A program made the position numbers and the translations under genes. The notes under the pieces were generated by a model. That model made no database searches, was not told the DNA's origin, and was given only the letters and a program-made list of their open reading frames with translations. From Aulosira sp. ZfuVER01 (lineage in GTDB: Bacteria; Cyanobacteriota; Cyanobacteriia; Cyanobacteriales; Nostocaceae), in assembly GCA_034530615.2 (NCBI GenBank), contig JAVRCV020000006.1:64001-128000 (forward strand): a DNA stretch of 64,000 nt, written 5' to 3'. Position 1 is the first letter of the stretch. Each line of letters opens with the position of its first letter. This document shows positions 4,931-56,814 of this stretch, in pieces.

Positions 4931-5173
4931 TTACATCTTACCGTGCTGCAATACTTGTTGAAGATGGCGGCGAATTTCTTGGGCTTGCTCCATATCAGAC
5001 TGCCGCAATTTTTGGAATAACTCTACACAGGGCTGGGAGTTAGCTTCCTGTGCGTCTTTGATGTAAGTGTCGTAAGCCTTAACTGCTTCAGCTTTGTTAT
5101 GCAACACAGTCACAAAATCGTACTCCAGGTTGCTAATCGCTTGTTGAGTTTGTCCGTTACCTGTAGTAACCAT
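4931..5173 (-). CDS. small helical, ferritin-like hypothetical protein
   Basis: 80 aa; ISNLEYDFVTVLHNK...YDTYIKDA...ELFQKL pattern. Confidence 0.7.
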   Translation of the reverse strand: MVTTGNGQTQQAISNLEYDFVTVLHNKAEAVKAYDTYIKDAQEANSQPCVELFQKLRQSDMEQAQEIRRHLQQVLQHGKM

Positions 5174-5410
5174 AAATTCATCCTCATTTAGGTTTCTAAT
5201 TAATTTCTACTCACCGTAAACGAGGTCTTCATCTTCCCAAAAGCGTAGAAAAAATTACCAAGGCTAGATTGAAGGGATGAGGGAGATGAGGGAGATGAGG
5301 GAGACAAGGAGGACAAGGGGGACAATGAAGAAATAACTAATGACTCTTAGCTCTTGCCTATTGCCTTTTACCAAATAACAAATGCCTAATGACAACTGAC
5401 GAATGACAAC

Positions 5411-5959
5411 TTATGAGAGAGGTTGATTTTCATCACAGCGGCGTGAATATTGGAATTCTAACTGGTTTTGCTTGTCTCTATTTCCTGAATAAGCAATTGG
5501 GCAAAACTTAGTATTAGCACTAATGCAATCCATGTGTGGTGTTTTGGCACATACTATCAGTAGCCCACCCAGAATGAATAATAAGCCACACATTGCTGCT
5601 GTCTGTAGAGAAGAAATTTCTAACGCACCATGAACAACTATTTCTCTGAGGACGGATACAATTGTGACTTCTACCGCTACTCCAACAGAAATACTATGCT
5701 CTTGCAGGTAAACCATGAGCAACCGAAATAGCTCTACCAAAATCAAGACAAATAGTATTTTTGCTGTGACTACTTTGTAGTCTAAAGGCTTTGTAATGGC
5801 AATAAATATGCCCCACAATTGAAGCAACATGACAGCAAATAAACCTAAACATAAGACAATTACAATTAGGTCTTGGAATGCCTCCATGTTGCGAACGATC
5901 GCATGACGATCGAACCAGCGATCGCAAAATAAAAACCGACTTTTGATGCGCTTTTGCAT
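5411..5959 (-). CDS. phosphate-starvation-inducible PsiE family membrane protein
   Basis: Four hydrophobic helices; ILFVLILVELFRLL and VSVLREI motifs. Confidence 0.8.
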   Translation of the reverse strand: MQKRIKSRFLFCDRWFDRHAIVRNMEAFQDLIVIVLCLGLFAVMLLQLWGIFIAITKPLDYKVVTAKILFVLILVELFRLLMVYLQEHSISVGVAVEVTIVSVLREIVVHGALEISSLQTAAMCGLLFILGGLLIVCAKTPHMDCISANTKFCPIAYSGNRDKQNQLEFQYSRRCDENQPLS

Positions 5960-49002: not shown

Positions 49003-49425
49003 GTGGCGTACTGGGTGAAAATCCTTTACGAGAGGAAAAAATACGTAGTCAATTTCGACCGTATTAATGCCTTTTGTTATGAACAAAACGGCAGAGTAAC
49101 CTTTTGGCTACCCGATTCTGCTATTCCAATTGTGATTAACCCACAAAGTAACCCGCAAGATTATCAAAAAATTTTGAAATACATAGAACGTGTGACAGGT
49201 TTGGAACTAGATGATGCCTATTGGGTGAAAATTATTTATGAAAACAACGAATATGTAATTAACCTGACTTGCATCAGTTCCTTTTGCCAAGAATCTAACG
49301 GCAGGATAACTTTTTGGTTACCTGATGGTACTATTCCCATCGTCATCAATCCTGTAAGTAATCCAGAGTCTTATCAAAAAGTTTTGCAATATGTCCAAAA
49401 AGCGACAGGGTATTCGTTGTCTTAA
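49003..49425 (+). CDS. hypothetical protein made of two tandem ~70-aa repeats
   Basis: AYWVKI.YE...FC.E.NGR.TFWLPD..IPIVINP.SNP..YQK occurs twice. Confidence 0.8.
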   Translation: MAYWVKILYERKKYVVNFDRINAFCYEQNGRVTFWLPDSAIPIVINPQSNPQDYQKILKYIERVTGLELDDAYWVKIIYENNEYVINLTCISSFCQESNGRITFWLPDGTIPIVINPVSNPESYQKVLQYVQKATGYSLS

Positions 49426-49521
49426 ATGGTAAGGCAGGAGGTAGAGGGCAGAGGGATTAGGGGGACGCGGAGAATGACAAAGGACAAATGCCTGATGCCC
49501 CATGCCCAATACCTATTAATT

Positions 49522-49920
49522 CTAGGTGCTTGGAGTATTGCTGTTGTGGGTTGATTCTTTTGCACCAGCTTTTAAACGGCTAGCAATGCTTTTGCGGATG
49601 CGATCGCCTTTACGCACACCACCTGCCATCTCATATTCGTAGCTGTCTTTGCCGTATTTCACAGCAACTCCCAGTAGCATGTAAGTAGAGAGATCGCCCA
49701 AGGTTTTCTCTAATTCTTTAATCTCGCTTTTGTAAGCCTCAACCACGCACACAGCAGTATTATAAGACTGGATTTTACTGCGCAATTTTTCGATTATTTG
49801 TATCATATTTTCCAAGTTCCGATTATTCCCAAAATCTATGTTGGGATCAATCGCCTGGAGTCCGTAGGTTCTTAATACAGCTTTTTCTAAAACACGTGAT
49901 TTCTGTTTTTGACGAGGCAT
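49522..49920 (-). CDS. basic coiled-coil hypothetical protein (KYGKDSxEYEMAGG-type C-terminus)
   Basis: 132-aa ORF, basic at both ends, helical centre. Confidence 0.75.
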   Translation of the reverse strand: MPRQKQKSRVLEKAVLRTYGLQAIDPNIDFGNNRNLENMIQIIEKLRSKIQSYNTAVCVVEAYKSEIKELEKTLGDLSTYMLLGVAVKYGKDSYEYEMAGGVRKGDRIRKSIASRLKAGAKESTHNSNTPST

Positions 49921-50062
49921 GGGTGTATCCCTTGTATAGTATTTTAAAGCTAGCTTGCCTTAGCGAAGGTGCATTTCGGTTCAGCAATATTCGCAAATAA
50001 TTGCAATTTTTATAAAAATTAATTTAAGTCATTTTACGAATGTCAATTTAAGTTGGGGGTGC

Positions 50063-50125
50063 GAAGTAACAACAAAACTTGTTGTCCTAACGACAGAGGT
50101 TACGGAAGTAACGACAGCTTCTTTA
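50063..50125. repeat. three-unit 21-bp-period mini-array with a TAACRACA core
   Basis: taacaaca 50067, taacgaca 50088, taacgaca 50109. Confidence 0.6.
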
Positions 50126-50194
50126 TAAGCGCGATCGCACTTTGCCGGAAACTATAAATACTGCGTCCCTTTATCTTCTCGTCCCCATGTCTTC

Positions 50195-53100
50195 TTACCG
50201 CCACCATCGCCCTACATCCACAACCCCATGCGCAATTTCTGCCATTGTCGCTTCACCACCCAACGCAAAGATAACTGGAAACAACGCCTTGATATCTGGT
50301 AGCAAGATAGGGCGAGTGTGAAGGGACAGCTCGTGCAGGACATCTCGCCAGAAGGGGAAAATGTCCCCAGACAGTATTTGTGAACAACCGGAAGCTAATG
50401 CTATCAGGACTTGGACACGAGACTCCTCAGACTCAATTGCCCTAGCAGTGGAGAGTGCTTCTTTTAACAACTCTGGTGGTAGTTTCTCAGCTAATGCTAT
50501 CAGGAGTTCGGCGCGAGACTTCTCATGCTCAATTGCACTAGTAGTGGTGAGTGCTTCTTTTAATAACTCTGGTAGTTTCTTGGCTAATGCTATCAGGACT
50601 TGGGCACGATCGCTATCATTCTGAATTTCTCTGGCGGCGGTAAGTACTTCTTTTAACAACTCTGGTGGTAGTTTCTCGGCTAATGCACTCAGGACTTGGG
50701 CGCGATTCCACTCAGACTCAATCATCCTGGCGGTGGAGAGTACTTCTAGTAATAACTCTGGTGGTAGTTTCTCGGCTAATGCACTCAGGACTTGGGCGCG
50801 ATACTTCTCATCCTGAATTTCTCTGGCGGCGGTAAGTACTTCTTTTAACACCTCTGATGGTAGTCTCTCGCCTAATGCTATCAAGAACTCGGCGCGATAA
50901 TAATCATCCTCAATTACCTTAATGGCAGAGAGTACTTCTTTTAACAACTCTGGTAGTCTCTCGCCTAATGCTATTAAGAACTCGGTGCGATTGCCGTCGT
51001 ACTCAATTGCCTGAATGGCGGAGATTACTTCTTTTAAAAACTCTGGTCGTAGTTTCTTGGCTAATGCGATTAGGACTTGGGCGCGATAATTATCATACTC
51101 AATCGCCATAGCAGTGGTGAGTGCTTCTTTTAACAACTCTAGTGGTAATTTATCGGCTATTTCACTCAGGGCTTCGGTGCGATTCCACTCAGACTCAATC
51201 GCCTTCACGGCAGTAAGCGCCTCTGGCAATAATTCAGGTAGTTTCTCGCCCAATGCTATCAGGACTTGGGCACGATAGCTATCATTCTGAATTTCTCTGG
51301 CGGCGGTGAGTGCTTCTTTTAACAACTCTGGTGGTAGTTTCGCAGCTAATGCTATCAAGGCATTGGCGCGAGACTTATCATCCTGAATTGCCTTAGCGGC
51401 AGTGAGTGCTTCTTTTAACAACTCTGGTGGTAGTTTTGCAGCTAATGCTATCAAAGCTTTGGCGCGAGACTTATCATCCTGAATTGTCATAGCAGTGGTG
51501 AGTGCTTCTTTTAACAACTCTGGCGGTAGTTTCTCGGCTATTTCACTCAGGCTACGGCCGCGATACCACTCATCTTGAATCGCCCTAGCAGTGATGAGTG
51601 CATCTGGCATCAACTCTGGCGGTAGTTTTTCGGTTAATGCACTCAAGACATCGACGCGAGACTTCTCATCCTGAATCGTGTTCACGGCGGTGAGTACTTC
51701 TTTTAACAACTCTGGTTTTAGTTTCTCGGCTAATGCAATCAGGACATCGGCACGATACCCCTCATCCTGAATTGCCATAGCAGTGATGAGTGCTGCTTTT
51801 AACAATTCTGGTGGTAGTTTTTTGACTAATGCAATCAGGACATCGGCACGATGCCCCTCATCCTGAATTGCCATAGCAGTGGTGAGTGCTGCTTTTAACA
51901 ACTCTGGTGCTAGTTTTTTGACTAATGCTTTTAGAGCCTCGGCGCGATACCACTCATTCTGAATCGCCTGAATGGCGGAAAGTACTTCTAGCAACAACTC
52001 TGGTGGTAATTTCTCGGCTAAGGCAATCAAGGCATTGGTGCGAGACTCCTCATCTTGAATTGCCTGAATGGCGGAGAGTACTTCTAGCAACAACTCTGAT
52101 GGTAGTTTCTGGGCTAATGCTATCAAGGCATCGGCGCGAGGCTTCTCATCCTGAATCGCTCTAGCAACAGTGAGCGCTTCTGTTAACAACTGTGGTGGTA
52201 GTTTCTCGGCTAATGCACTTAGAGTAGGGGTGCGATAATACTCATTCTGGATCGATCCAGCACAGGCTAGTGCTGCTTCTAACAATTCTGGTGGTAGTTT
52301 CTTGGCTAGTGCAATTAGCGCATTGGTGCGATCGCTATCAGGGTAAATCACCGTAGCAGTGGTGAGTGCTTCTGGCCACAACTCTGGCAGCTTCTCGGCT
52401 AATGCACTCAGAGCTTTGGCTCGTTGAGCTTTAGACTCAAGTGCTCTAGCAGTGGTGAGCGCTTCTTTTAACAACTCTGGCGGTAGTTTCTCTGCTAATA
52501 CTATCAGTGCAAGGGCGCGATAGAACTCGATTTGAATCGCCGTAGCAGTGGTGAGTGTTTCTGTCCACAACTCTGGCAATTTCTCGGCTAATACAATCAG
52601 GACTTCGGCGCGATACTGCTCATCCTGAATCGCCCTAGCAGCAGTGAGTGCTTCTTTTAACAACTCTGGCGGTAGTTTCTCAACTAATTTACTCAGGGCA
52701 TTGGCGCGCTTGCCCTCATACTGAATCGCACTGACGTTGTTGAGTGTTTCTGTCCACAACTCTGGCTGTTTCTCGGCTAATGCAATTAGTGCTAGAGCGC
52801 GATCGCTATCATCCTGAATTGCCCTAGCGTCAGTGAGTGCTTCTGGACAAAACTCTGGTAGTTTCTGGATTAATGCACTCAGAGCTTTGGCTCGATACTC
52901 CTCATACTCAATCACCCTGGCAATAGAGAGTGCTTCTTTTAACAACTCTGGTGGTAGTTTCTCGGCTAATGCTATCAAGGCATCAGCGCGAACATAATCA
53001 ATCTCAATCGCCTTGGCGGCGGAGAGTGCTTCTTTTAATAACTCTGATGGTAGTTGCTTGGCTAATGCTATTAAGGCATTGGCGCGATCGCTCTCATCCG

Positions 53101-55237
53101 GTATTGCCTTGGCGATGGTAAGTGCTTCTTTCCACAACTCTGGTGGTAATTTCTCAGCTAATACACTCAACGCATTGGCGCGATAGTAGTCATTCCTAAC
53201 TGCCATAGAGGCGGTGAGTGCTTCTGTCCACAACTCTGGTAGTTTCTCGGCTAATGCTATCAGTGCAGGAGCGCGATCGCTATCATCCTGAATTGCCCTA
53301 GCGGTAGTGACTGCTTCAGAAAGTACTAGTTTCTCTAAATTGGCTGGCAAATAGTTGACTAACTCAACAACAGTTTCTACTTTCTCCTTTGGTTCTGGTT
53401 TTTGCAGGGCGTAAGCTAATCCCTGTTCAGGAGTCCAGATTTTATTTTTGACTAACGCCACCAGCATTTTGGCAGGTAAATTAGCTGCCAAACTATTCAA
53501 GGAAGCTGTAATCAAAGCATAGCGACACTGCAAACCTACCACTTGAGGCAGTGTTGATTCACTCCAACTCGCTTCAGCTAATTCCCAAGCACGAAAAATA
53601 TCTGTGATGTAACCTCCAGTTTGTCCCACTTTCTCCCGCGCTTCATGCCAGCCATTGCTTCCTGTTAGCGATTCCTCCCACAATAAAGAGTGAATTTCTT
53701 CTACCCGTTCAGCCTTTTCTAAATGCCAAACTAAATTTTGATGAATGTAACCATCATTAGCTAAGGTATGCCAGAGGTTGTTTTGCGTCTTTTGTTGATA
53801 GCGTTCTAGCAGTTGGCTGTGTGCAGCAATTAATTCCAAACCCATCCCTACAGGAGGAGATTTAGTTAAGCGATTACGAGCGACATCATGTAATAAGTCA
53901 TGTAACCTGTAGCCTCTCCACTCGACACCCCCAACAAATACAGGTGCATCAGATTGAAGTAAGGCATCATTCCAAAGTAGCTCTAAACATTCATTAGCTT
54001 CATCCTGGGATTTCATCTCCCATAATGTCACGGCCATTGGTGCGGCTATGGTGACATCTTCTGGTAACACTCCCAACCAAATAAAATTTTCCCAGGCTTG
54101 TTGGTCGTAGTCTTGTAAAGCTTTCAGGCTTAAATTAAAAGTTGCTTCTAAAGAATTTTCTTGACGCGGCCCGTATAAGACTTTTAAATTTGCAACCTCT
54201 TGTTTCAAAGCGGTTTCCAGCTTCTCCCATGTAATTCCCCATTTGACTCTGGCTGCTACTAAATTCAGAGCAATGGGCAGGTATCCTACAGTTTCGGCTA
54301 CTCTCAAAGCCTCTGGTTTTTCTACTTCTGTGATTTCTCGTTCTAAAGACTTAGAAAGTAATTCCAGCGATTCTGCTGGCGTCATCAAATTCAATTTCTG
54401 CAAATAAGCACCAACGCTATCAGCCACATCAGCCCGCCGCGAAGTAATTAATAGCTGCGATTGGGAACCTGCTACCATAAAGGGTTTAACTTTATCTGGT
54501 TCCCAAGCATCATCAACTACTAATAAAACTGTTTTATCATGTAGCAAACTTCGCAAATGTGTTGAAGTTCCCTCTACATTCACAGCACGAAATTCGTAGT
54601 CTCCCAAGGCTTGCACCCAGCTACTTAGTAGGGCAAGAATATCTGGTTCTTGTCCTAAAGTTGCCCAAAGCACACCACCAGAAAAACGTTTTTGGATATC
54701 CTCATCATGGGCAAGGGCTGTAATTAAAGTTGTCTTACCTATGCCACCTAAACCGTGAATTGCACTGATGAGCAACGCACCAGCAGCAGATGTATTTGCC
54801 AGTAGACGAGCTTTGATTTCTACAGTAACTTGTGGGCGATCGACAAAATTAGCAGGTAAACTCGGTGCTTGAAAAGGTCTGTCAATTGGGCGACGATAAT
54901 TAATAGTCAGGCTGCCTTCTACTCGACCGACAATAATATTGTTGTCACCCTTGATATTTTGCACGACATTTTCGTTACCGGAAATTGTTTGTGCAAACTC
55001 AGGCTGAATATGGGGATTTAAACTAGTTACAGCAGCTTCATCCTTTTCTGCGTTACCTAAAATTGGTTGTTTAACCTGAGACGGAATCTGAGGATTTAAA
55101 TTAGTTTTAGCAACTTCATTTCTCAGTAGATGTTGCTGACGTTTTAATCTTCGACGCTTCCCTTTTAAAAAGCCAGCTAACTTAGATAAAAAAAGTCTTA
55201 TCCGCTTCCATAACCTTCTCAGGCTGATTTTTTGCAC
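50195..55237 (-). CDS. NLR-like STAND NTPase: putative amyloid motif - NB-ARC - about 30 helical 31/32-aa repeats
   Basis: GLGGIGKT, LLVVDDAW, LLITSR, GYLPIAL, LHDLL; repeats of type LPPELLKEALTAARAIQDxxxRAxxLIALAEK. Confidence 0.92.
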   Translation of the reverse strand: MQKISLRRLWKRIRLFLSKLAGFLKGKRRRLKRQQHLLRNEVAKTNLNPQIPSQVKQPILGNAEKDEAAVTSLNPHIQPEFAQTISGNENVVQNIKGDNNIIVGRVEGSLTINYRRPIDRPFQAPSLPANFVDRPQVTVEIKARLLANTSAAGALLISAIHGLGGIGKTTLITALAHDEDIQKRFSGGVLWATLGQEPDILALLSSWVQALGDYEFRAVNVEGTSTHLRSLLHDKTVLLVVDDAWEPDKVKPFMVAGSQSQLLITSRRADVADSVGAYLQKLNLMTPAESLELLSKSLEREITEVEKPEALRVAETVGYLPIALNLVAARVKWGITWEKLETALKQEVANLKVLYGPRQENSLEATFNLSLKALQDYDQQAWENFIWLGVLPEDVTIAAPMAVTLWEMKSQDEANECLELLWNDALLQSDAPVFVGGVEWRGYRLHDLLHDVARNRLTKSPPVGMGLELIAAHSQLLERYQQKTQNNLWHTLANDGYIHQNLVWHLEKAERVEEIHSLLWEESLTGSNGWHEAREKVGQTGGYITDIFRAWELAEASWSESTLPQVVGLQCRYALITASLNSLAANLPAKMLVALVKNKIWTPEQGLAYALQKPEPKEKVETVVELVNYLPANLEKLVLSEAVTTARAIQDDSDRAPALIALAEKLPELWTEALTASMAVRNDYYRANALSVLAEKLPPELWKEALTIAKAIPDESDRANALIALAKQLPSELLKEALSAAKAIEIDYVRADALIALAEKLPPELLKEALSIARVIEYEEYRAKALSALIQKLPEFCPEALTDARAIQDDSDRALALIALAEKQPELWTETLNNVSAIQYEGKRANALSKLVEKLPPELLKEALTAARAIQDEQYRAEVLIVLAEKLPELWTETLTTATAIQIEFYRALALIVLAEKLPPELLKEALTTARALESKAQRAKALSALAEKLPELWPEALTTATVIYPDSDRTNALIALAKKLPPELLEAALACAGSIQNEYYRTPTLSALAEKLPPQLLTEALTVARAIQDEKPRADALIALAQKLPSELLLEVLSAIQAIQDEESRTNALIALAEKLPPELLLEVLSAIQAIQNEWYRAEALKALVKKLAPELLKAALTTAMAIQDEGHRADVLIALVKKLPPELLKAALITAMAIQDEGYRADVLIALAEKLKPELLKEVLTAVNTIQDEKSRVDVLSALTEKLPPELMPDALITARAIQDEWYRGRSLSEIAEKLPPELLKEALTTAMTIQDDKSRAKALIALAAKLPPELLKEALTAAKAIQDDKSRANALIALAAKLPPELLKEALTAAREIQNDSYRAQVLIALGEKLPELLPEALTAVKAIESEWNRTEALSEIADKLPLELLKEALTTAMAIEYDNYRAQVLIALAKKLRPEFLKEVISAIQAIEYDGNRTEFLIALGERLPELLKEVLSAIKVIEDDYYRAEFLIALGERLPSEVLKEVLTAAREIQDEKYRAQVLSALAEKLPPELLLEVLSTARMIESEWNRAQVLSALAEKLPPELLKEVLTAAREIQNDSDRAQVLIALAKKLPELLKEALTTTSAIEHEKSRAELLIALAEKLPPELLKEALSTARAIESEESRVQVLIALASGCSQILSGDIFPFWRDVLHELSLHTRPILLPDIKALFPVIFALGGEATMAEIAHGVVDVGRWWR

Positions 55238-55269
55238 TGTGTTAACTCCCCAATATTCTGCCTCTTTAA

Positions 55270-55719
55270 CTAATTGATAGTTACATGATCTCCTGCTCTA
55301 GCAATAGACTTATTACCATCACCCGCAATATTCTGCACTTGGTTCTCATTGCCAGAGATTGTTTGATTAAAGCTATTCACAACTTTAGAAATTGTGTCTG
55401 CATCTTCCTGCATTAAACGAGCAATTTCCGCAGCTAAATTTTTATCTTCATCGAGTAATTTCTTGAGTTGTTTCTGGAGTGTTTCCTTGGCATCTGCATC
55501 ATCAGGAGAACTTGCCAACTCTTCTGCTGCACCTTTCGCCATTGGCTTGGCTTCTACCTTTGGTTGCAACTTACTCCACAAAGATTTAGCCTTTTCCCAG
55601 TCATTAGCGCCCAAGCTTTCACCCAGTTTCTTACCAGCTTCTTCGGCTGCTGTCTGTCCTACTTTGAGCAAGTACGGTAAAAATGGGGTTAAGAAAGTAG
55701 TTAAAGTTACTATATCCAT
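55270..55719 (-). CDS. Bell/HeLo-like small effector protein with a C-terminal putative amyloid signalling motif
   Basis: Hydrophobic N-terminal helix (LTTFLTPFLPYLL), helical body (WEKAKSLWSKL...PDD...L..QL.KLL.ED..LA.EI), C-terminal 33-aa motif shared with the NLR. Confidence 0.8.
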   Translation of the reverse strand: MDIVTLTTFLTPFLPYLLKVGQTAAEEAGKKLGESLGANDWEKAKSLWSKLQPKVEAKPMAKGAAEELASSPDDADAKETLQKQLKKLLDEDKNLAAEIARLMQEDADTISKVVNSFNQTISGNENQVQNIAGDGNKSIARAGDHVTIN

Positions 55720-55887
55720 TTGTTTACTCCGATTGTAAAGACGTAGAATACTGGTCAATTACCACAAATGACTCTGTATTAACATCTAAAGAATCAGGGG
55801 TCAAACTCAGGGGAAATACTTAATATGGTCGCCTAGTTTGGCGATCGCTACCTCTGTTACGTACTAGTAAATGCGATCGCCTACTCA

Positions 55888-56436
55888 TTACTCACCAGCA
55901 AAGAAAGCAAACTCCGATTTAATATTCCAACGCCTACCGTCGTGAATTAATAAAGTCAACTTGTCGGCAGTAAACTCAAAATGTAACTGCCGATTTTCAA
56001 ATTCTGGCCAAGCTGCTTTAAAGTTCTGTCGCGTTAAGTCCCGAAAAGCCACTGTCATGTGGGGTGCAAAGGGGCGAGTTTTGCCAACTTTGTCTACAAT
56101 GCCCAAACTTGCTTCTACATACGCCATTAAATCTGCTTGCAGAGTCAACAGTTCTTGGCTTCTCACCACATCTATATATATGACGCGGGGGGCAAAGGCA
56201 GCAAACCCACTCAGCGTAACGGGTAGTGGTTTTTGTTCGCTAGCAAACTCCCTAATAGATGCTTCTAGCCGTGACACATCGCTATTTGCCCATTCAAAAG
56301 GCGGTTGCAGCGTAATGTGAGGCGGAGACTTTTGCGCATGACTGCTGGCGTAGTTGTCAGCAAAGTACTGCTTGATTTGATTAGCGTAATCTTGAATGTC
56401 TTGCGGTGGTAGTAGGGCAATAAAAAAGCGGCTCAT
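55888..56436 (-). CDS. 2H phosphoesterase / 2'-5' RNA ligase family protein
   Basis: Two HxT motifs: PPHITL and APHMTV. Confidence 0.88.
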   Translation of the reverse strand: MSRFFIALLPPQDIQDYANQIKQYFADNYASSHAQKSPPHITLQPPFEWANSDVSRLEASIREFASEQKPLPVTLSGFAAFAPRVIYIDVVRSQELLTLQADLMAYVEASLGIVDKVGKTRPFAPHMTVAFRDLTRQNFKAAWPEFENRQLHFEFTADKLTLLIHDGRRWNIKSEFAFFAGE

Positions 56437-56547
56437 TCAATTTTGGATTTTAGATTTTGGATTTTAAATTAAGATTGAGCAGCAAAGGCTGGTAGGAAGA
56501 TATTACAACTAGATGACGATGGAAAAATTCTAGAGGTTGAAAGTTAA

Positions 56548-56814
56548 ATGCCTTGGTTTGTAAAGATTGAAGCAGGTAAAGTGGATAAACCTACCTTTGA
56601 CCAATACGTAGCCGCCCATAAAGCTTACGTTCAGGATTTGATTACTAAAGGACACAAAGCCAGAACAGGATACTGGGCAGAATTCGGAGGCGGGATGATG
56701 CTGTTTGAGGCAAAATCGATGGACGAAGCCCAAGCAATTGTAGCCCTTGACCCATTGGTACAAAACGGTTGTGTGAATTATCAGCTACACGAATGGCGAA
56801 TTGTAGTGGAATAA
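56548..56814 (+). CDS. YciI family protein
   Basis: VAAHKAY...GGGMMLFEA...DPL pattern. Confidence 0.85.
   Translation: MPWFVKIEAGKVDKPTFDQYVAAHKAYVQDLITKGHKARTGYWAEFGGGMMLFEAKSMDEAQAIVALDPLVQNGCVNYQLHEWRIVVE

Follow-up and report, generated by a model that had tools for sequence, protein, structure and literature searches.

Do two adjacent genes of a filamentous cyanobacterium form a signaling pair of the amyloid type, and, if they do, is the pair new? The question is raised by a stretch of 64,000 nucleotides (nt) from Aulosira sp. ZfuVER01 (contig JAVRCV020000006.1, positions 64,001 to 128,000), here called the window, in whose coordinates all positions are given unless another contig or locus is named. 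A first-pass annotation, made from the sequence alone, had described a gene for a protein of 149 amino acids (aa) next to a gene for a nucleotide-binding oligomerization domain-like receptor (NLR). It had read the two as effector and receptor of a system in which a 33-aa motif, present at the C terminus of the effector and ahead of the NB-ARC domain of the receptor, carries the signal. We think it probable that the genes encode a two-gene NLR signalosome of the type in which a Bell-domain effector is matched to its receptor by a bacterial amyloid signaling sequence (BASS).

The last 33 residues of the effector (117 to 149) gave a single gapless match to receptor residues 81 to 113, with 20 of 33 residues identical (BLASTP, composition-adjusted, E = 2e-10), and the annotation had placed both copies exactly. 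Its 10-residue pseudo-repeat, Q-x-I-x-G-[ND]-x-N, was recovered as well: it occurs twice on each side (QTISGNEN and QNIAGDGN in the effector, QTISGNEN and QNIKGDNN in the receptor), and a third segment is degenerate. The receptor copy lies just ahead of the NB-ARC domain, as had been proposed, and ends 27 residues before it. Both copies have the composition bias reported for BASS motifs, which are enriched in Q, N, G, V, and I and poor in K, P, and L (Dyrka 2020, bioRxiv 10.1101/2020.01.06.895854). The five enriched residues make up 20 of 33 positions in the effector copy and 22 of 33 in the receptor copy, there is no proline in either, and the counts of K, P, and L are 1, 0, and 0 and 1, 0, and 1 in the two copies. 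The motif can be read as four short strands (QTIS, VVQNI, IIVGRV, and LTIN) with G-[ND]-x-N or EGS turns, which would suit a layer of a serpentine fold; beta propensity was judged from the alternating pattern and from a beta hydrophobic moment of 0.43 to 0.48 over receptor residues 94 to 117. In the model of the effector monomer, the motif is disordered (predicted local distance difference test [pLDDT] score, <50). The Pfam models RHIM, HET-s_218-289, NACHT_sigma, and Ses_B gave no match at E ≤ 0.1 in either protein, in a search whose HMMER filters may lose very short, weak matches. The core of RHIM is I/V-Q-I/V-G, and this core is absent from both copies.

A match of this kind could be a by-product of low-complexity composition, of a recent duplication, or of gene conversion, and have no signaling role. 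Both segments are indeed rich in N, Q, and G, and such tails score moderately across the tag classes described below (within-class non-cognate median, 57). The DNA argues otherwise. The two copies agree at 61 of 99 bases, and 11 of the 20 identical residues are encoded by different codons, including all six in the run ISGNEN (ATC/ATT, TCT/TCC, GGC/GGT, AAT/AAC, GAG/GAA, and AAC/AAT), as the annotation had pointed out. By the Nei-Gojobori method, the copies differ at 17 of 22 synonymous sites versus 21 of 77 non-synonymous sites. Synonymous sites this close to saturation, with the peptide held, indicate an old divergence and not a recent DNA copy or gene conversion, so the earlier statement that selection had acted on the peptide stands. 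Over 17 loci that carry the same motif, the ratio of non-synonymous to synonymous change (pN/pS) was 0.37 for the effector copy and 0.41 for the receptor copy (0.35 for the latter across 12 loci), compared with 0.90 in the neighboring receptor linker; the adjacent Bell domain gave 0.20. Purifying selection acts on both sides of the motif. With these values, with an E value already adjusted for composition, and with classes of tail and receptor N terminus that change together across phyla (see below), we give next to no credence to a by-product.

A signaling tag should change in the effector and in the receptor together, and the annotation had proposed co-variation as a check. A scan with one genome per species gave 155 relatives, of which the best 80 loci were kept. 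The family of Bell N-terminal domains is spread over Cyanobacteria, Chloroflexota, and a few Actinomycetota, and this one family bears several distinct classes of C-terminal tail. Fifty-three loci, the window included, combine a short effector with a called downstream open reading frame (ORF); in these, the last 45 residues of each effector were compared with the first 170 residues of each downstream protein. The summed score of the cognates was 3449, whereas permuted partners gave 2003 ± 116 and at most 2432 (10,000 permutations), and 39 of the 53 cognates exceeded the 99th percentile (a score of 44) of 1816 cross-class non-cognate scores. Because the cognate score beat all permutations, the class of the tail and the class of the receptor N terminus switch together, as is expected of a signaling tag, and at this level the switching holds across phyla. 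The check therefore came out positive between classes; within the window's own class it came out negative, as described below.

The window's tag belongs to what we call class A, a set of 19 loci (L001 to L017, L072, and the window) from Nostocales, apart from one Oscillatoria record. In 17 of the 19, both motifs could be read, the exceptions being L003 (receptor start) and L016 (contig end). A class-A profile gave all 36 class-A tails and N termini scores of at least 37.6 bits, including three receptor motifs outside the profile, and the rest 24 bits or less; the nearest tails of other classes are cyanobacterial IQQ-V-S/T-G-x-x-N-Q-x-I-G motifs. Each side has its own consensus, ..GDGNKxIGRVGGDATIN in effectors and ..GDNNIxVGRVEGSLTIN in receptors. 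The spacer between the two genes is 28 to 34 nt in 12 of the 17 related class-A loci with a called downstream ORF. Complete receptor ORFs run from 471 to 1680 aa (L006, 471; L005, 728; L004, 1106; L011, 1581; window, 1680), a spread that suggests changes in repeat number, although most of these records are metagenome bins in which collapsed repeats or frameshifts are likely. In the Fischerella locus (L014, 4218 to 4817, plus strand), a double zinc ribbon (Pfam DZR, E = 4.2e-14) replaces the basic stretch ahead of the class-A tag, and in the Rivularia locus (L013, 6450 to 8000, plus strand), the tag is carried by a STAND-like NTPase that is not of the NB-ARC type and has weak nSTAND3/NACHT matches. 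These combinations show that the receptor N terminus, too, is modular.

The Bell domain and ten BASS families were defined from just such an effector/NLR layout, and BASS1 and BASS3 showed prion behavior and fibrils (Dyrka 2020, bioRxiv 10.1101/2020.01.06.895854). The same survey counted 44 additional conserved pairs outside the ten families. One pair, BAY13571.1/BAY13572.1, is found in the Bellside_ and NLRside_class_not_assigned sets of supplementary file 1 of Dyrka 2021 (PMC8086366), where class_not_assigned stands for "other BASS," that is, the Bell/NLR neighbor pairs of Dyrka 2020 that the BASS1-10 profiles missed. BAY13571.1 is identical to the window effector at 87 of 100 positions over residues 50 to 149 (counted by eye). 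BAY13572.1 has the same basic N-terminal stretch, and its motif is identical to that of the window receptor at 30 of 31 positions. Gene order agrees, and both pairs come from filamentous cyanobacteria. The window pair is another strain's copy of the published one, with no difference in kind. Since an orthologous pair is already in published data, the window pair is not new. The annotation was right about the layout (the genes are collinear, they share a motif, and an orthologue stands in the published Bell-side and NLR-side sets) and right that the class of system is known; its suggestion of an uncatalogued motif held in part, as the motif lies outside BASS1-10 and the orthologous pair had nevertheless been listed as "other BASS, class not assigned."

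That class A falls outside BASS1-10 rests on the file names and the text of PMC8086366. The homology of the Bell domains was judged through BAY13571.1, the published archetype being ONI86675.1. Class A shares its length class, composition, position, and pairing logic with BASS1-10, and one IQQ-V-S/T-G-x-x-N-Q-x-I-G tail, of the sort nearest to class A, was clustered in C01 in the published work. From the sizes of the sets, we infer that clusters C09, Ccya03, and Cnlr26 are BASS6, BASS9, and BASS10; these clusters match tails of other classes borne by the window's Bell family. In 2025, the number of BASS families was still put at ten (PMC12261475), to which BASS11, the E. coli Bab/Agp pair, is to be added, and our literature search, whose coverage stopped short of subscription journals, found no later BASS family that names the class-A motif. 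The published record of BAY13571.1/BAY13572.1 lists the pair only. What is added here is a discrete 19-locus motif family with a side-specific consensus, the cationic N-terminal stretch of the receptor, some 30 HEAT-like repeats as the presumed sensor, and a 131-aa companion gene.

The motif might instead be a homotypic adaptor of the "effector-associated domain" (EAD) kind, recruiting the effector stoichiometrically, e.g., by beta-strand pairing, with no self-propagating amyloid. EADs are small paired domains encoded in adjacent genes that interact homotypically, EAD10 being mixed alpha+beta (Kaur 2020, PMC7159879). They resemble the motif as short paired modules on an NTPase and an adjacent effector; they were described mainly in vWA-MoxR and GAP1 systems and were not read as amyloids. 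The tails of two relatives from another tail class match EAD10 (PF19954), P0044 with E = 2.4e-06 and 27.9 bits (cut-off, 24.1) and P0047 with E = 4.2e-04, under the cut-off, and a side-specific consensus fits a heterotypic interface no less well than templating. However, the window proteins, including the effector tail, gave no Pfam match to EAD10 at E ≤ 0.1. The motif's 33 residues, Q/N/G-rich, Pro-free, disordered in the monomer model, and set out in 10-residue G-[ND]-x-N turns, are what BASS and HRAM motifs typically look like, and all such motifs that were tested (BASS1, BASS3, and BASS11) formed fibrils and prions. Prediction of a complex of two copies each of receptor residues 72 to 120 and effector residues 108 to 149, with their own alignments (A3 and A4) and without controls, gave no answer either way, its scores of 0.23 and 0.20 being under the mark of 0.32. 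We regard an adaptor of the EAD kind as unlikely, with the proviso that the EAD and BASS descriptions may name the same objects.

The probable Bell/BASS assignment depends also on the small protein itself. The Bell domain is described as all-alpha and ~100 aa long, within a short protein of roughly 120 to 140 aa, and its signature is a hydrophobic first helix in which residue 2 or 3 is acidic (Dyrka 2020, bioRxiv 10.1101/2020.01.06.895854). Among 162 candidates, we counted 71 homologues of the effector, 81 to 261 aa long but mostly of 135 to 150 aa. An AlphaFold2 model built on 64 sequences had a mean pLDDT of 77.6, with block means of 76 to 91 over residues 1 to 120; it has seven helices within residues 3 to 121 and a tail that is unstructured from residue 123. 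The N terminus, MDIVTLTTFLTPFLPYLL, is the best-conserved part of the protein: in an alignment of 36 sequences, P12, L14, P15, and L17 do not vary, and D2, F9, and L10 are each kept in at least 90%. The effector is thus an all-helical protein, in the model, with a hydrophobic N-terminal helix and D2, and the annotation's picture of a helical bundle led by a hydrophobic helix agrees with that model. The start at ATG 55719 is preferred over TTG 55758 because a conserved M-D/N begins the homologues: 32 of 35 aligned sequences start at or within 1 residue of it, P0013 starts later, and P0029 and P0033 have longer leaders. Pfam, NCBIfam, and PADLOC contained no family for the effector. HeLo, MLKL, and Bab were not in the fold-match lists for its model, which does not exclude them, and a search of its sequence against solved structures returned only a designed coiled coil (E = 1.5). 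No significant solved relative was found that would support a likeness to the HeLo, MLKL, or Bab folds; large topological variation has been noted among Bell models (Ibarlosa 2024, bioRxiv 10.1101/2024.11.07.622273).

The receptor is organized, from N to C terminus, as a cationic amphipathic stretch, a linker, the 33-aa motif, the NB-ARC domain, a helical domain, ~30 HEAT-like repeats, and a C-terminal cap; a central NB-ARC or NACHT domain followed by superstructure-forming repeats is the arrangement of NLR/STAND proteins (Table 1). Its GTG, which follows an in-frame TAG, is the earliest start codon possible. For residues 7 to 24, the helical hydrophobic moment is 0.63 and the net charge is +6, and the pN/pS of 0.42 across 12 loci means that the cationic stretch is translated and constrained. 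In the tandem duplication that overlaps the linker, the upstream copy (..NLNPQIPSQVKQPILGNAEKD..) repeats the linker and first motif arch (..SLNPHIQPEFAQTISGNENVV..) in decayed form; the duplication is visible in orthologues too.

The repeat unit is 32 or 31 aa, with ~30 copies. All 28 aligned repeats share E5, R23, and L27, and the most variable positions are 15, 19, 21, 22, and 25. A model of six repeats has 12 helices and a pLDDT of 95; of the 16 other rows in its alignment, 11 were informative, MAFFT having matched overlapping windows by identity, out of register. The top Foldseek rows for this model were HEAT/ARM proteins (PP2A PR65, TMq 0.68; Spiral2, TMq 0.73), with E values of 1.3e-3 or weaker. 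As modeled, the repeats form a HEAT/ARM-like alpha-solenoid. No Pfam repeat family matched them, and PADLOC had no family for the receptor; in the published survey, NLR-like architectures were defined by TPR or WD repeats (Dyrka 2020, bioRxiv 10.1101/2020.01.06.895854). The nearest clusters in an Atlas look-up of the repeats were unnamed cyanobacterial and Chloroflexota proteins, and the TPR-named ones (0.76 to 0.81) are a lead only. A weak, below-threshold RhoGAP match in Pfam was also seen over the repeats. The C-terminal cap is kept in the L004 orthologue and matched no family.

Table 1. Features of the effector/receptor locus in window coordinates
Feature	Position	Strand	Details
Bell-domain effector gene	55719..55270	minus	149 aa; ATG start, stop included
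N-terminal hydrophobic helix MDIVTLTTFLTPFLPYLLK	55663..55719	minus	Effector residues 1-19; candidate membrane-attacking element; modeled as helix 3-17
Effector-side motif	55273..55371	minus	Effector residues 117-149 (C-terminal end)
Spacer between effector and receptor genes	55238..55269	minus	32 nt; genes collinear
NLR-like receptor gene	55237..50195	minus	1680 aa; GTG start
Cationic amphipathic stretch	55130..55234	minus	Receptor residues 2-36; found in 12/17 class-A receptors
Fast-evolving linker	54998..55129	minus	Receptor residues 37-80; pN/pS 0.90, nearly neutral
78-nt tandem duplication	54973-55119	minus	Tandem Repeats Finder (TRF): 1.9 copies, 78% match; overlaps linker
Receptor-side motif	54899..54997	minus	Receptor residues 81-113
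NB-ARC domain	54188..54817	minus	Receptor residues 141-350; PF00931, E 2.6e-22, 79.7 bits, cut-off 23.5
APAF-1-type helical domain	53678..53827	minus	Receptor residues 471-520; PF17908, E 2.1e-06, 28.1 bits, cut-off 22.8
Tandem helical repeats, presumed sensor	50394..53317	minus	TRF: 30.7 copies of 96 nt, 72% match
C-terminal cap (..FPFWRDVLHELSL...VGRWWR)	50198-50389	minus	Receptor residues ~1617-1680, ~65 aa
132-aa gene, possible third component	49522..49920	minus	274 nt after receptor, same strand

What the sequences show is the architecture, the shared motif and its constraint as a peptide, its co-variation with the partner between classes, and the identity of the family with published Bell-side and NLR-side entries. 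Amyloid folding, templating, toxicity through membrane attack, and an immune or abortive-infection trigger are taken by analogy from BASS1, BASS3, BASS11 (Bab/Agp), and HET-S/NWD2, and on that analogy such a pair may work as follows. With no ligand on its repeat solenoid, the receptor would stay inactive; once bound to one, it would oligomerize via NB-ARC, and the N-terminal motifs, thus crowded, would fold as stacked beta-arches into a cross-beta nucleus. This nucleus would act as a template on which the effector's disordered C-terminal tail takes up the same fold, and refolding of the tail would free the buried hydrophobic helix 1 from the helical bundle. Helix 1 might then attack the membrane, killing the cell and protecting the rest of the filament. 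The fungal HET-S/NWD2 pair of Podospora anserina (HRAM motif) is alike in having an effector whose N-terminal helical domain targets the membrane and whose C terminus carries a prion-forming motif, an adjacent NLR with one copy of the motif, and pseudo-repeats in the motif. It differs in that its proteins have no detected sequence or fold relation to those of the window, its pseudo-repeat has a period of 21 residues and not 10, and NWD2 has NACHT and WD domains where the window receptor has NB-ARC, HEAT-like repeats, and ~80 residues before the motif. The closest bacterial comparison is BASS11 Bab/Agp of E. coli, an abortive-infection system whose effector fold cups helix 1 (Ibarlosa 2024, bioRxiv 10.1101/2024.11.07.622273). 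Its effector, too, is small and helical, begins with a hydrophobic helix 1, and ends in an amyloid motif shared with an adjacent sensor gene; in the literature consulted, killing of infected bacteria by such a pair has been proven in vivo for it alone. The globular domain of Bab ("Babybell") is ~80 aa, versus ~116 aa here, and the motif family and host lineage differ.

Several results weigh against a signalosome of the Bell/BASS type. Foldseek gave no match of the effector model to the PDB at E ≤ 1e-3, and the wide VIA-align search with that model gave a best Z of 4.2 (2au5_A), with no chains at Z ≥ 5. The final ten residues of the window effector's tail are off-consensus: A142 and V146 stand at positions that hold V and A, respectively, in at least 90% of 23 sequences. 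The receptor motif is not at the extreme N terminus, as it is in NWD2. Of the 53 loci in the tag comparison, 14 had no cognate match; most of these have gaps of 83 to 498 nt or a clearly different downstream gene, so at most of them the call of the partner is doubtful. Within class A, cognates were no better matched than non-cognates, ranking from 1 to 16 among the 53 receptors (the window ranked 1, L017, which is the most divergent, ranked 2, and most ranked 5 to 16). The neighboring genes are housekeeping genes (CTP synthase, YCII, QueF, and a PBP-like protein) and not a defense island. Finally, the literature consulted contained no experiment on the class-A motif and no in vivo test of a cyanobacterial pair.

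What would trigger such a pair can be approached from its distribution. The Bell domain is present in 48 of 150 other genomes of the same family, and a class-A-grade match in only 7; none of 4 genomes from the same genus has such a match. Flanking genes vary between loci, and relatives are found on three cyanobacterial plasmids. Patchiness of this kind is usual for accessory immune genes. The same layout could have a trigger other than phage and serve cell death in development or under stress, or the recognition of self and non-self within a filament or between filaments. To our knowledge, allorecognition is the only demonstrated role of the fungal archetype. The lack of neighboring defense genes in the window agrees with a non-phage trigger, as does the abundance of NB-ARC matches in the genome (25 above the Pfam cut-off), and the variable repeat positions indicate only that a sensor surface has diversified, not what its ligand is. 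Against this stand the presence of class-A-grade matches in so few genomes, and Bab/Agp, in the literature consulted the one bacterial amyloid pair tested in vivo, which acts in abortive infection. We consider a non-phage trigger improbable. A scan of IMG/VR with the motif alignment gave 51 pattern matches, none of which was confirmed by tblastn, and a tblastn search with the effector in 50,697 phage records gave no match.

More tentatively, and with rather more doubt than confidence, we suggest that class A is an unnamed BASS family, a 33-residue serpentine of three turns with two 10-residue Q-x-I-x-G-[ND]-x-N arches. In this suggestion, the cationic amphipathic N-terminal helix would be an added regulatory layer that tethers the receptor to the membrane or masks the motif until activation, and the 131-aa protein would be a third component. 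If this were true, the helix would be a regulatory layer not described for amyloid-signaling NLRs. The pair itself changes little; it confirms that filamentous cyanobacteria commonly have NLR signaling of the amyloid type, in modular form. At least 5 or 6 different tags are wired to one effector domain, and the host genome has two differently tagged pairs; such an arrangement would let death signals run in parallel yet insulated from one another. What is of interest is the unnamed tag family, together with the receptor's extra N-terminal element, and not the class of system. Because class A is compact, well populated, and unnamed, with a side-specific consensus, it would lend itself well to measuring the degree of mismatch that is tolerated in amyloid templating.

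The candidate third gene, encoding 131 to 132 aa, has a homologue adjoining the pair in 10 of 18 related class-A loci, 9 times upstream of the effector and once, as in the window, downstream of the receptor (L002 to L011, about 5160 to 5740, plus strand; L072, 10980 to 11348, plus strand). It is adjacent in none of the 62 other loci. The Pfam scan of the 132-aa protein found no significant family. Its family comprises 214 clusters, and the names listed are nearly all from Nostocales. In the host genome it has 14 matches, of which 3 lie beside NB-ARC genes (contigs 6, 3, and 8) and 1 beside caspase/FGE-sulfatase genes; five of the 14 are within ~2 kb of contig ends.

The host genome, of 8.03 Mb, has 28 NB-ARC matches at E ≤ 0.001 and three matches to the window's Bell family. 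A second Bell/NLR pair is on contig 3 (72575 to 74632; L082; L100, 10562 to 13408), with a BASS9/10-like tag, ...AYDNSSVKQVGKIEANEVSF, and an 814-aa NB-ARC/TPR receptor that carries a matching N-terminal tag. The Bell frame of this pair is without its first 22 residues, i.e., the hydrophobic helix, and for that reason its effector may be decayed. On contig 8 (30822 to 34748; L096, 4823 to 8749, plus strand) is a 1308-aa receptor with an N-terminal EAD4 (E = 1.3e-36) and NB-ARC. Its C-terminal region has the same weak RhoGAP match in Pfam as the window repeats, hinting at related repeats, and a paralogue of the 132-aa gene follows after ~430 nt.

Elsewhere among the relatives, the Bell-type N-terminal domain opens a long ORF of 312 to 1029 aa in some Chloroflexota and cyanobacterial loci (L020, L021, and L068, also L031, L049, L064, and L069); a fused Bell form is mentioned as rare (Dyrka 2020, bioRxiv 10.1101/2020.01.06.895854). 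Around the window pair, a scan of positions 49400 to 56600 for sigma-70 promoters and terminators found fewer sites than in shuffled sequences and none usefully placed, which is uninformative for a cyanobacterium. On the plus strand, a 140-aa ORF at 49003 to 49425, for which the Pfam scan gave no family at the cut-off, consists of two mutually repeating halves (AYWVKI.YE...Y.VN...I..FC.E.NGR.TFWLPD..IPIVINP.SNP..YQK.L.Y...TG).

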